Shown piece after piece: positions 6,512-13,503 of a stretch of DNA of 64,000 nt. The notes under the pieces are model-generated. The model ran no database searches and was not told the DNA's origin. It saw only the letters and a program-made list of their open reading frames with translations. This stretch comes from a virus: the IMG/VR virus record IMGVR_UViG_3300034954_001721, one strand, 5' to 3'. The translations under genes were made by a program, and so were the position numbers. Each line of letters starts with the position of its first letter. Position 1 is the first letter of the stretch.

Positions 6512-6540
6512 TTGACAATCTACGCCCTGTAGTGTAGAAT
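6512..6540 (+). promoter_or_regulatory. Sigma70-like early promoter
   Basis: TTGACA-N17-TAGAAT. Confidence 0.75.
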
Positions 6541-6546
6541 ACTTTT

Positions 6547-6936
6547 ATGATTTTAGAAACCATTTTGGCATTAACGCCACTTGATTATGATCATCTTGCT
6601 CGTGCCGTTCAGGTAGAAGCAGCACCCAATACTCGTGATGAGTTTTGTGTTGCTGTTTCAATTTTGAATCGTGTTCGTTCTCCGCATTTTCCAAATACGG
6701 TAGCGGATGTTGTTTATGCGCCTGGACAGTATGAGGGATTCCGCTTTTGGAATCCTGTAGCAAAGAAAAGTGTTGTTGAGCGTCTCAAGAAAAATGAGAA
6801 CTTGCTTGCAGCATACTCGGTGATTGGTGATCGAACTGATTTCAAAGGTCAATCGCAACTCCCATATAGAATTATATCCGAGGATCCAATGTGTGATCCA
6901 AAGGGAAACTTCTTCCATTATCATTGGCAGGGGTGA
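6547..6936 (+). CDS. Cell wall hydrolase, SleB/Hydrolase_2 family
   Basis: LARAVQVEA, AVAVSILNRV, FPNTVADVVYAPGQY. Confidence 0.85.
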   Translation: MILETILALTPLDYDHLARAVQVEAAPNTRDEFCVAVSILNRVRSPHFPNTVADVVYAPGQYEGFRFWNPVAKKSVVERLKKNENLLAAYSVIGDRTDFKGQSQLPYRIISEDPMCDPKGNFFHYHWQG

Positions 6937-6944
6937 CCCTCCTT

Positions 6945-7018
6945 GACTCAATAGCTCAGCTGGATAGAGCAACTGCCTTCTAAGCAGTCGGTCGTAGGTT
7001 CGAATCCTACTTGAGTCG
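6945..7018 (+). tRNA. tRNA-Arg(TCT)
   Basis: Acceptor GACTCAA/TTGAGTC; anticodon loop CTTCTAA; T arm GGTTCGAATCC. Confidence 0.95.
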
Positions 7019-7032
7019 TTTGTCTTCTTACT

Positions 7033-7203
7033 ATGGACCCAGTTAAAATATTACTTCTACTATCTGAATTAGAAGGCAGTTCTGCTCATTTGGGCAACTT
7101 GGGTTTTGAAGAGGACAAAGAAGTTCTTAACGAAATGAAGGGTAGGTACTACAAACTATACTTCAAACTCTGTAAAGAACAAGGGAGAAATCCCTACGGA
7201 TAA
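7033..7203 (+). CDS. 56 aa hypothetical protein between tRNAs (not in ORF track)
   Basis: MDPVKILLLLSELEG...GRNPYG; stop abuts tRNA-Asn. Confidence 0.55.
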   Translation: MDPVKILLLLSELEGSSAHLGNLGFEEDKEVLNEMKGRYYKLYFKLCKEQGRNPYG

Positions 7204-7275
7204 TCCTCTGTAGCTCAGCGGTAGAGCCGACGACTGTTAATCGTCTGGTCGCAGGTTCGAATCCTGCCGGGGGAG
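7204..7275 (+). tRNA. tRNA-Asn(GTT)
   Basis: Cloverleaf; anticodon stem GACGA/TCGTC with loop CTGTTAA. Confidence 0.95.
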
Positions 7276-7522
7276 TTAGGAACTTGAGACGTTCCAACCA
7301 AGGTGCTCATCGGTTCGGATATACCGAAACCCTGTAGGTGAGGGTAAACCCCCTTGGATATTCACAACGGAAATTGTGTCTTACTCCATTACAAACTGTC
7401 AGAATGTTGGGTTGAGTGCCCCGTCCTCAATCAGGCGCTTGGTTGAGAAACACATTCGGATAAGTGTAATGTATTATATAAGACCATGGAGTAATCCTAA
7501 ACTACAGGTTGGTTCACCTGTA
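7276..7522 (+). ncRNA. Putative highly structured ncRNA between tRNA-Asn and tRNA-Thr
   Basis: No convincing ORF; about 9 complementary helices and a possible pseudoknot (see findings). Confidence 0.6.
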
Positions 7523-7524
7523 TT

Positions 7525-7597
7525 GCCTCCGTAGCTCAGCTGGTAGAGCAGGTCTTTTGTAAAGATCAGGTCGCAGGTTCAAGTCCTGTCAGAGGCT
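7525..7597 (+). tRNA. tRNA-Thr(TGT)
   Basis: Cloverleaf; loop TTTGTAA; C6:A67 acceptor mismatch. Confidence 0.92.
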
Positions 7598-7625
7598 TGA
7601 CAATCTGAAATGATTGTTATATTAT
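7597..7625 (+). promoter_or_regulatory. Sigma70-like early promoter
   Basis: TTGACA-N17-TATTAT upstream of tRNA-Gly. Confidence 0.7.
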
Positions 7626-7673
7626 AGGTTCATCCGTGTGAAGGATGTGTCTGGGGATTAATCCCCACCACCT

Positions 7674-7745
7674 GCGGGTGTAGTTCAGTGGTAGAACGTC
7701 AGCCTTCCAAGCTGAATGTCGTCGGTTCGAACCCGATCTCCCGCT
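7674..7745 (+). tRNA. tRNA-Gly(TCC)
   Basis: Cloverleaf; loop CTTCCAA; T6:T67 mismatch. Confidence 0.92.
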
Positions 7746-7780
7746 TTCTGGTTAACCGTAAAACCAGAATTTATACCTAG

Positions 7781-7788
7781 TATAAATA
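7781..7788 (+). promoter_or_regulatory. T4 late promoter TATAAATA
   Basis: Exact consensus, upstream of the OMP-like gene. Confidence 0.65.
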
Positions 7789-7893
7789 TTACACCTTTTG
7801 AAGATTTACAACAAAAGGTAACAACAGGGAGTTGTCGATTCCCTTTCCATCTGCGGGTAATCATTCCGCAAGTAAAAAACGAGGTTTAAACAA

Positions 7894-8259
7894 ATGATCA
7901 AATCTGTATTCGCAGCAACTGCTGCTCTGTCTATGTCCGCAGGCGCTGCCCTTGCAGGTCCCTACGTCAACGTGGAAACGAATGCCGGTTGGGTAGGCGA
8001 CGATTATTCCGGAGCAACCACAGATCTTCATATTGGCTATGAAGGAGAAGTTGGTGCTGCCGCATACTACGTCCAGGCGGGTCCAGCAGTCGTTTCTGTT
8101 GATGGTCAAGAGTCCGAAACTCAATTCTCTGGTAAAGCAGGTCTTGGCGTTCCCGTTAGCGATGCTATCGGAGTGTATGGAGAAGTTTCCTTCCTGACTG
8201 CAGACGATAAGGATGATCTGGGTCTTGGCGGTAAGTTGGGTGTTAAGTACAACTTCTGA
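7894..8259 (+). CDS. Small outer-membrane beta-barrel-like protein
   Basis: Signal peptide ending AALA; alternating amphipathic strands; C-terminal GVKYNF beta-signal; GAGG SD. Confidence 0.75.
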   Translation: MIKSVFAATAALSMSAGAALAGPYVNVETNAGWVGDDYSGATTDLHIGYEGEVGAAAYYVQAGPAVVSVDGQESETQFSGKAGLGVPVSDAIGVYGEVSFLTADDKDDLGLGGKLGVKYNF

Positions 8260-8292
8260 TCCCATTTTTCTAGTTAATAAGGATATCCTAAC

Positions 8293-8318
8293 AACCTCCC
8301 TAAAGGGAGGTTTTTTTA
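8293..8318 (+). terminator. Rho-independent terminator
   Basis: AACCTCCC-TAAA-GGGAGGTT followed by T run. Confidence 0.85.
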
Positions 8319-8371
8319 TGGTTTAATTTGGATTAACCATGTTAAAATAGTAAGGTCATTTGACAAAACCG

Positions 8372-8566
8372 ATGAAAAAGTATTTAAGAGCATTCTTAAA
8401 TCCAATAACTCAGATTAATATAATGATTCTGGGTTTTTTAATACTTGTTCAGGTTATACATACCAGAGCACATCATACTCTAGAGACTGATGTCCATGGG
8501 CATGTTCATAGAGCACTAAAAGCAAACCCAGAAATGGCACGATCTACCTGCTACGAACTTGACTAA
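8372..8566 (+). CDS. Small TM hypothetical protein
   Basis: MKKYLRAF... with a hydrophobic helix. Confidence 0.55.
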   Translation: MKKYLRAFLNPITQINIMILGFLILVQVIHTRAHHTLETDVHGHVHRALKANPEMARSTCYELD

Positions 8567-8805
8567 TGAAGAAGAAAGTAAAAAAAATGATGGAATGGTT
8601 CTATGATGAATCATATAGAGGAGGACAAAACATTGCAGAATGCAAAAATCTTTATGATCTTGTAGAAAAACTGCAGTGTCGTCTAGAAGATGTGGAAAAT
8701 GATTATCTGCACTTATGTCGTGAAATTGCTATACATCGACGTGAAATTGGTAGATTACAAGGTATACTAGATACGTTAGAATCTCGGTTACCTGATGAAG
8801 ATTAA
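8566..8805 (+). CDS. Hypothetical coiled-coil protein
   Basis: TAATG coupling. Confidence 0.55.
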   Translation: MKKKVKKMMEWFYDESYRGGQNIAECKNLYDLVEKLQCRLEDVENDYLHLCREIAIHRREIGRLQGILDTLESRLPDED

Positions 8806-8980
8806 TCTGTGGTATTCAAAGAGTATGTCTCAGTGGCGTTGGACACTTGTGGAAGAGTGGAGAAACGGCGTCACTAAGACCGAACAACACTCTGGACAAC
8901 AACCGATGTTGCGTGATGCAATGGAAGATGTTGCCAAAACTGTAGAGTATATGTTAAAATATGAGGAGAAGGGCGATTAG
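8795..8980 (+). CDS. Hypothetical cyanophage protein
   Basis: MKINLWYSKSMSQWRWTL; stop lies inside tRNA-Val. Confidence 0.6.
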   Translation: MKINLWYSKSMSQWRWTLVEEWRNGVTKTEQHSGQQPMLRDAMEDVAKTVEYMLKYEEKGD

Positions 8981-9042
8981 CGCAGCGGTAGCGCAGCTGC
9001 TTTACACGCAGTTGGTCATTGGTTCGAATCCGATATTGCCCA
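8971..9042 (+). tRNA. tRNA-Val(TAC)
   Basis: GGGCGAT/ATTGCCC acceptor; loop TTTACAC. Confidence 0.93.
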
Positions 9043-9050
9043 TATAAATA
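9043..9050 (+). promoter_or_regulatory. T4 late promoter TATAAATA
   Basis: Exact consensus. Confidence 0.6.
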
Positions 9051-9094
9051 GATGTGGAAAGACTTCTGTGAAGGAAGGAACACATTATAAAAAC

Positions 9095-9349
9095 ATGGAT
9101 AATGTTAAAATAAGATGCCGCTCCTGTGGTAAGGAGTTAATTGGGCATCCAAGTAGGACTGTTTGTTGTGGTTGCCCAAATATGACAACTATTCGTGGAG
9201 ATAGAATCTCTGCAGTTGACTTAGGTCAAGTTATCATGTTAAACTCTTATACAAGTAAAAAAGAAACCGTTCTTACTCAGCAAGATATTGAGTGGCAAGA
9301 ACAAAGAAGACAACGCAAAGTTCGTAAAATGAATTTTGAAGTTCGTTAG
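9095..9349 (+). CDS. Zn-ribbon-like hypothetical protein
   Basis: CRSC...CGCPN. Confidence 0.65.
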   Translation: MDNVKIRCRSCGKELIGHPSRTVCCGCPNMTTIRGDRISAVDLGQVIMLNSYTSKKETVLTQQDIEWQEQRRQRKVRKMNFEVR

Positions 9350-13256: not shown

Positions 13257-13418
13257 ATGATCCATAAAGTTGCACATTTTGCTGCATGGACTTTAAACAA
13301 TCCTTGGACACTAGGACCAATGTGTTTGGCACTAGTGTTTGTTCCTATTTTGGGAATGCATCTGGTTCATAAGTATGGATGGGAACACTGGGAACCGTTT
13401 GCCAAACCCCACAAATAG
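13257..13418 (+). CDS. 53 aa membrane peptide
   Basis: ...LVFVPILGMHLVHKYGWEHWEPF. Confidence 0.55.
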   Translation: MIHKVAHFAAWTLNNPWTLGPMCLALVFVPILGMHLVHKYGWEHWEPFAKPHK

Positions 13419-13503
13419 TGCTATACTAAACGGGTTGAGACACAACTCAACTGCGGTGACCTCCTTGGTAGTTCAGGGTTAGCGGCGATAGGAACTACCA
13501 CAA

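Follow-up and report, generated by a model that had tools for sequence, protein, structure and literature searches.

What is encoded between two adjoining tRNA genes in a 64,000-nt stretch of viral DNA (IMG/VR record IMGVR_UViG_3300034954_001721; the whole stretch is called the window below)? The spacer, positions 7276–7524, sits exactly between the ARAGORN-predicted genes for tRNA-Asn and tRNA-Thr (Table 1), and our analysis suggests that positions 7276–7474 are probably the gene of a compact, excised, trans-acting non-coding RNA (ncRNA), the representative of a cyanophage family not catalogued previously. The source DNA is part of a T4-like Synechococcus cyanomyovirus without a close sequenced relative: in the best megablast matches of the window, no more than 16% of 20 kb aligns, with approximately 76–83% identity, and the contents of the window include a wcaG RNA, a PhotoRC-II RNA and six tRNAs. 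An earlier interpretation made from the letters alone (the sequence-only reading) had proposed a structured RNA of about 245 nt that fills this spacer exactly, lacks a convincing open reading frame (ORF), is not recognisable as a named family and is released by processing of the two neighbouring tRNAs, and it had suggested an Rfam scan and a covariation test on collected homologs. The exact fit, the absence of a conserved ORF in the spacer and the ncRNA interpretation itself, with covariation present and coding excluded, held up in what follows; the length of the unit and several of the proposed pairings did not.

Collection of homologs yielded at least 165 true family members among marine cyanophage sequences. 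Spacer homologs were located by blastn in approximately 14 isolate species, and two degenerate-pattern scans of IMG/VR returned at least 118 contigs each. Isolates carrying the RNA include S-N03, MA10-type phages, S-T4, S-PRM1, S-CAM9 and S-8S55, with Syn1, S-RIM44, S-SM2, Sf-CH5/8, S-TIM5-type phages and S-SKS1 as further carriers. They span three unrelated lineages, namely seven genera of T4-like Kyanoviridae, Aurunvirus (S-TIM5) and Llyrvirus (S-SKS1), and the hosts of all carrier lineages are marine Synechococcus. The 3′ half of the RNA is universal in the family, while the 5′ half is either of type A, as in the window, with optional inserts, or of a shorter type B. Both types have in common the P1 hairpin with its UGAG loop, a GGUGC string, a P3 hairpin whose loop contains GG, and the CUCC box. 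Model R1, which describes the 3′ domain only, scores window positions 7378–7474 at 81.3 bits (E = 7e-18) and independent loci at 68–90 bits. Both features that define membership are present in the window: the R1-scored 3′ domain P4–P7 with the invariant AAACUGUCAG ... GGAUAAGU, and the P1 hairpin with UGAG loop together with an (N)CUC box before P4.

Outside phages, model R1 matched none of 151 genomes chosen to represent the cyanobacterial phylum. When 185,579 species genomes were scanned with a pattern, three matches emerged, just one of which fits the model: an 878-bp contig (JAPOJR010000293.1, L133) with two tRNAs and this RNA (89 bits), binned in an "Alphaproteobacteria" metagenome-assembled genome and probably mis-binned cyanophage DNA. 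Judging from these searches, the family appears to be restricted to marine cyanophages, with no cellular homolog among the genomes searched.

The conserved element is shorter than the spacer. Alignment A2, comprising 69 distinct complete spacers, delimits it to approximately 197 nt (7276–7474) rather than the unit of about 245 nt envisaged before, the remaining 50 nt being a rare tail that is missing in 66 of the 69 aligned spacers and present only in the IMG/VR contigs L023, L046 and L170. In the family at large, the element stops 3–6 nt past an invariant GAUAAGUGUARUG, right at the next tRNA. Typical homologous spacers measure 137–198 nt, and minimal forms 137–150 nt.

Support for the fold comes from a curated 55-pair structure evaluated on A2, with controls in which the 3′ partners were slid by 1–3 columns and with 500 shuffles. 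In total, 92.2% of cells are paired (27–46% in the slid controls) and double-sided changes occur at 20 pairs (2–9 when slid), while none of the 500 shuffles reached the observed covariation score. Type B, aligned separately (A4, 28 sequences), shows 97.5% of cells paired versus at most 54% in slid controls and nine covarying pairs versus 0–3. Both the minimum free energy (MFE) and the centroid single-sequence folds of 7276–7474 reproduce all supported helices. On the mixed alignment, RNAalifold recovered only P3–P6, the 5′ domain being obscured there by the type-B rows and by register shifts of 1 nt, a problem overcome by means of curated structures and anchored tabulation.

Six helices that the sequence-only reading had drawn, P1, P2, P3, P4, P6 and P8 (CTCAATCA/TGGTTGAG), are thus supported by covariation and also appear in the single-sequence fold. 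The P1 stem occurs as GGGAG/CUCCC and GGGAC/GUCCC, and in type B as CGGG/CCCG and CAGG/CCUG; P2 varies in length by matched insertions and has a UCAAGG/CCUUGA variant; P2c shows changes from U-A to C-G and from G-C to A-U (L024/L103); and P3 has double-sided changes at all five pairs, in up to 28 sequences per pair. P4 and P6 carry many G-U pairs, which are valid on the plus strand only. P5 and the junction nucleotides are invariant, hence covariation neither supports nor contradicts them. Altogether, approximately 45 nucleotides located in junctions and internal loops are invariant across three phage lineages. Other pairings drawn earlier fared worse: TCGGT/ACCGA and ACCCT/AGGGT are in the wrong register, the compensatory changes favouring P2c and P2b; a closing helix TTAGGA/TCCTAA and a hairpin TACAGGT/ACCTGTA both depend on the tail and are not family features; and a loop pseudoknot of GGCGCT with AGTGCC would employ the invariant P7 strand and is lost in L023.

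A different pseudoknot joins the loop of P1 to the linker box that precedes P4. The box reads ACUCC in type A, whereas type B has GCUCC or GCCCC, with concerted changes in the P1 loop, the loop/box combinations seen being GAGU/ACUC, GAGC/GCUC, GAGU/GCUC (a U-G intermediate) and GGGC/GCCC (L143 only). In type B, this pseudoknot comprises 4 bp, is paired in 28 of 28 sequences and shows double-sided change at two of its four pairs (A-U to G-C; C-G to U-A via U-G). On comparative grounds, it appears to take the place of the long-range helix TTACTCCAT/ATGGAGTAA formerly assigned to the box: ATGGAGTAA, at 7486–94, is part of the rarely present tail and has already decayed in L023, and the box covaries with the P1 loop.

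The ends of the RNA are set by its surroundings. Every member shares its strand with the adjacent tRNAs, and no opposite-strand tRNA occurs within 300 nt of any of them. In 106 homologs, the gap from the upstream tRNA to the first stem (AGGAAC) is 0–3 nt, leaving no space for an encoded CCA; in the window, TT alone separates the 3′ end of tRNA-Asn from AGGAAC. In 119 homologs, the next tRNA begins 1–5 nt past the end mark (P4 plus 3 nt). In a CCA-less tRNA precursor, RNase Z cuts after the discriminator, and RNase P cuts at position +1 of the next tRNA. These boundaries fit the release through tRNA processing that had been proposed for this locus. The flanks themselves are interchangeable: at least 15 different tRNA pairs surround the RNA (including Met-Leu, Asn-Val, Asn-Thr, Arg-Thr, Arg-Asn, Arg-Gly, Thr-Asn, Gly-Asn and Ile-Leu), or else a promoter stands upstream, or petE or an ORF downstream.

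A sigma-70 promoter replaces the upstream tRNA in 16 copies. In 11 of 13 distinct promoter contexts, it has the form TTGACA/TTGACC-17-TATAAT/TATGAT and ends exactly 9 nt before P1, so that the primary transcript would start at the boundary set elsewhere by tRNA processing. In the window, the RNA lacks a dedicated promoter, strong promoters being located at 6512–6540 and 7597–7625, and the spacer holds no terminator; from this we infer co-transcription with tRNA-Asn and tRNA-Thr. The second of these promoters (sigma-70, TTGACA-17-TATTAT) lies between tRNA-Thr and tRNA-Gly and is followed by short hairpins, which suggests that the array is transcribed from more than one start.

We propose that the RNA is transcribed together with phage tRNAs from early sigma-70-type promoters, that an RNase Z-type cut after the discriminator of the CCA-less tRNA-Asn would create its 5′ end, and that an RNase P cut at the downstream tRNA would create its 3′ end. 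In this phage, the latter would lie 50 nt further, at 7524, owing to the lineage-specific tail, giving a species 7276–7524 unless the tail is trimmed. The product would fold into a 5′ domain P1-P2-P3 tied by the pseudoknot to a long irregular 3′ hairpin P4–P7 (plus P8 here) and probably acts in trans, binding a host protein, RNA or ligand (a phage one is less likely) early in infection. Action in trans is suggested by the independence of the RNA from its flanks, its early production with tRNAs, its compact fold, its spread over three lineages and the failure to find a host homolog. It would be neither an antisense RNA nor a cis-regulator. A counter-defence role, or one connected with tRNA or translation metabolism, is plausible by analogy, because an abiF-type antitoxin RNA and manA occupy equivalent slots in another cyanophage.

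Several observations weigh against this interpretation. In type A, the window included, the pseudoknot has just 3 bp plus an A·A mismatch; its covariation comes from type B, where one of the two compensatory changes is due to the single sequence L143; and the tail of the window is able to pair with the box over 9 bp and would compete with it. The folding energy is unremarkable and not discriminating (z = −1.43 and −1.70 for the plus and minus strands, respectively, and −1.44 for the core), so the dense complementarity from which the locus was first noticed gives no support when taken alone, and it is the comparative data, not the folding energy, that establish the structure. Release as a stable RNA is something we infer from the boundaries. 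The results point to no partner or target, although co-occurring protein genes were not sought systematically. Finally, nearly all copies precede a tRNA, which is also compatible with a cis role in the maturation of tRNA transcripts.

A bolder form of the trans-acting interpretation is tentative, and we regard it as rather unlikely: the RNA could be a host-directed effector, exchanged horizontally among the three lineages, that neutralises or hijacks a factor peculiar to marine picocyanobacteria, with phage tRNA arrays serving as launch pads from which host tRNA-processing enzymes would generate anti-host small RNAs, manA and abiF-like RNAs among them. The factor might, for instance, be a defence system that targets tRNAs or senses RNA, or else take part in tRNA or translation metabolism.

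The main rival is a cis-acting module for maturation or stability of polycistronic tRNA transcripts, functionless once excised: a self-folding spacer that would prevent misfolding of the adjacent tRNAs, offer RNase P and RNase Z clean cleavage sites or, in promoter-proximal copies, shield the 5′ end of the transcript. Such a module would account for the tRNA found within 1–5 nt downstream in 119 of approximately 136 fully scored copies and for the 16 promoter-proximal copies, which are leaders of tRNA operons. However, most cyanophage tRNAs are 1–5 nt apart with no such spacer, so processing needs none, and the copies of S-TIM5/S-TIM54 and S-N03/MA10 have no downstream tRNA at all. Moreover, a mere spacer would not retain approximately 45 invariant nucleotides and a covarying pseudoknot across three lineages. 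Weakened on these three counts, a purely cis-acting role seems unlikely to us.

Less likely again is a base-pairing small RNA, in which the box UCUUACUCC, reminiscent of the ACUCC of host Yfr1, would serve as a single-stranded, anti-Shine–Dalgarno-like seed for GGAG-containing mRNA sites. In type A, no other unpaired stretch is indeed as conserved as the box, and the tail of the window contains its perfect 9-nt complement, AUGGAGUAA. This complement is known in just four sequences, however, and is degraded in L023, while in type B the box and the P1 loop vary jointly, the pattern that an intramolecular pseudoknot would produce. Complementary sites within the 64-kb window number 19 against 25.7 expected, which is no enrichment (host mRNAs lie outside this search). 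Because the pseudoknot covaries and complementary sites are not enriched, the box does not behave as a free seed, and we consider such a function improbable.

The RNA was also compared with families already described. For this RNA, Rfam 15 gave no family match when the window was scanned at the gathering thresholds, the spacer at E ≤ 10 and eight homologs at E ≤ 5, the families covered including GOLLD, ROOL, abiF, Yfr1, self-cleaving ribozymes and Y RNA. Concerning the motifs of Weinberg 2010 absent from Rfam (e.g., Ocean-VI), the invariant strings do not occur together in 200 supplementary alignment files (238 further files are outside this check), and no prior description of the RNA turned up in the literature searched.

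One candidate is manA (RF01745), described as a riboswitch candidate located mainly in 5′ untranslated regions and found also in two gamma-proteobacteria (PMC2864571), with a published example in phage S-CREM1 (PMC9964418) that sits flush between tRNA-Leu and tRNA-Asn. Like our RNA, it is an orphan structured RNA of approximately 190–215 nt from marine cyanophages; niche, size class and hosts are shared, and in both RNAs a small hairpin comes first and a G-rich strand pairs with CUCC at long range. The loop of P2′ in type B, CUAACCA (A4 columns 30–36), resembles the manA hairpin loop "cuaACCA", which may reflect a shared module or chance. Nevertheless, the Rfam model (gathering threshold 55.2 bits) finds nothing in 6700–9200 at E ≤ 10 or in the eight homologs at E ≤ 5, although it scores the genuine S-CREM1 manA, our positive control, at 96.6 bits; conversely, R1 reaches at most 5.1 bits on that manA. 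By-eye comparison of A2 and A4 detected no element of the manA plan (a 5′ hairpin, a multi-stem junction closed by GGGAG...CUCCC, GUGaCUGAAUAA and GUGGUG); helix order, sequence and invariant strings all differ, and our RNA is seen only in phage DNA. As the model fires on the control and is silent on the RNA, we rejected manA as its identity, and even a divergent member of that family is highly improbable.

Equally improbable is an origin as a degenerate tRNA gene, a pair of such genes or a tRNA mimic, although the RNA resides inside tRNA arrays, its minimal length is approximately 2 × 72 nt, and P4, a 7-bp helix with a 3–4-nt 3′ overhang, is acceptor-like. ARAGORN and the Rfam tRNA model (RF00005, clan CL00001), even at E ≤ 10, detect the flanking tRNAs only and no cloverleaf inside the element; a T-loop or D-loop signature is missing, and the fold supported by covariation is not a cloverleaf.

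Weakest of all, a small protein-coding gene, as suggested by a 52-codon GTG ORF (7376–7534) and by "hypothetical protein" annotations over the RNA in several records, can be dismissed with near certainty, given that each reading frame is open in at most 19 of 93 distinct copies, that copy lengths are spread evenly modulo 3 and distances between invariant blocks keep no frame, that stems vary by compensatory changes rather than at third codon positions, and that the annotated ORFs differ in strand and overlap tRNAs. These coding sequence (CDS) annotations occur in Syn1, S-RIM44, S-SM2, S-TIM5 and S-TIM54, where some run into tRNAs or are drawn on the other strand; from the sequence evidence, they are probably spurious.

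Phage T4 offers a close parallel in arrangement to the trans-acting ncRNA proposed here. Two non-tRNA RNAs, rnaD and rnaC, are packed end to end after tRNA-Arg on the same strand (tRNA-Arg, rnaD, rnaC) and matured together with the tRNAs. The function of rnaC (species 1, 139 nt) and rnaD (species 2, 119 nt) is still unknown, and both are classed as late RNAs (PMC9697503), whereas the cyanophage family stands behind early-type sigma-70 promoters. The tRNA-like T-arm at the end of rnaC and the terminal CACCA of rnaD have no counterpart in the cyanophage RNA, and homology is not detectable: the best R1 score in T4 69500–73500 is 9.8 bits (E = 5.5; 3′-domain model only). The 10-mer GTTCGGATAT (7313–7322, in P2c) also occurs in T4 rnaC (L131), and TTGAGA is found in both RNAs; the shared 10-mer is probably due to chance (approximately 0.03 expected for one 10-mer).

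GOLLD (RF01998) and ROOL (RF03087) are structured RNAs of phages and prophages, of unknown function and often located beside tRNA genes. They differ from the cyanophage RNA in being several-fold larger and in their hosts, and it matches neither in Rfam. The tRNA array of S-CREM1 (L172, 9500–11000) contains wcaG, manA and, between tRNA-Asn and tRNA-Gly, abiF. The latter (RF03085) is likewise a small RNA between tRNAs, resembling a type III antitoxin; it differs in having 37 nt, an unrelated sequence and cellular homologs. Its position suggests that such slots can hold trans-acting RNAs, possibly with a counter-defence role.

A considerable part of the ocean's main primary producers is killed by marine cyanophages, whose non-coding RNAs are barely charted. 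A widespread family is now defined with exact ends and a pseudoknotted fold, and with a production route through tRNA punctuation or an early promoter. It is a new family of a known kind, the orphan small RNAs that phage tRNA operons contain, and, after manA and abiF, the third unrelated RNA in cyanophage tRNA-to-tRNA slots. This strengthens the view of phage tRNA arrays as small-RNA expression cassettes, a question that RNA C and D of T4, known since the 1970s, had left open. Culturable isolates carrying the family include S-PRM1, S-T4, Syn1, S-SM2, S-TIM5 and S-SKS1.

Table 1. Coordinates of the RNA, its structural elements and flanking genes; positions refer to the window except in the last two rows, which name other loci (L).
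Feature	Position	Strand	Remarks
tRNA-Asn(GTT)	7204–7275	+	ARAGORN and Rfam tRNA model; 3′ end abuts the RNA; CCA not encoded
Conserved core (5′ domain P1–P3, linker box, 3′ domain P4–P8)	7276–7474	+	Alignments A1, A2, A3; model R1; covariation; MFE fold
P1 hairpin GGAAC/GTTCC	7279–83/7291–95	+	Loop UUGAGAC 7284–7290; loop UGAG common to both 5′-domain types
Pseudoknot, P1 loop with linker box	GAG 7286–7288 with CUC 7384–7386	+
P2 CCAAGG/CCTTGG	7298–7303/7352–7357	+	6 or 7 bp; encloses P2b and optional P2c
P2b CTCA/TGAG	7306–7309/7339–7342	+	Six Watson–Crick variants, fixed position
P2c GGTT-CGG/CCG-A-AACC	7312–7318/7324–7331	+	Optional branch; compensatory changes
P3 hairpin CACAA/UUGUG	7363–7378	+	GG conserved in loop
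Linker box UCUUACUCC	7379–7387	+	Invariant in A2; CUC 7384–7386 is the 3′ strand of the pseudoknot
Universal 3′ domain P4–P7, with optional P8	7387–7471	+	Covariation; R1
P4 CATTACA/TGTAATG	7387–93/7465–71	+	Covaries; followed by J4/5 AAC/AG
P5 UGUC/GAUA	7397–7400/7459–62	+	Invariant; followed by A·G
P6 GAATGT/ACATTC	7402–07/7452–57	+	Covaries
P7	7409–11/7419–21	+	Strand invariant
P8 CTCAATCA/TGGTTGAG	7426–33/7440–47	+	Optional insertion; compensatory changes
Lineage-specific 3′ tail	7475–7524	+	Outside the family; AUGGAGUAA at 7486–94 and hairpin UACAGGU/ACCUGUA (7503–09/7515–21)
tRNA-Thr(TGT)	7525–7597	+	ARAGORN and Rfam tRNA model; RNase P cut at its 5′ end would define the 3′ end of the RNA
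CDS over the RNA	L005 543–725; L009 609–725; L011 486–692, 698–790		Syn1_196 (L005)
CDS over the RNA	L006 462–746; L010 489–773	−

Some features of the arrays themselves deserve mention. In S-N03 and MA10, where the RNA has no downstream tRNA, a putative endonuclease and an HNH endonuclease flank the array (L001 1–303 and L007 881–1393), hinting that homing endonucleases may remodel these arrays, which recalls segB of the T4 tRNA cluster. A 56-codon ATG ORF (7033–7203) occupies the gap from tRNA-Arg to tRNA-Asn in the window. Elsewhere in the window, at 13398–13503, a different hairpin-rich leader of approximately 70 nt, not matched by model R1, lies between a sigma-70-like promoter (TTTGCC-17-TATACT) and tRNA-Pro, and it contains UUGAGAC, GGUGAC and CUCC strings as in the studied RNA. 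The same slot, recognised by the same upstream ORF end, holds the studied RNA in several other phages, namely L110, L125, L035, L057, L058 and L091.

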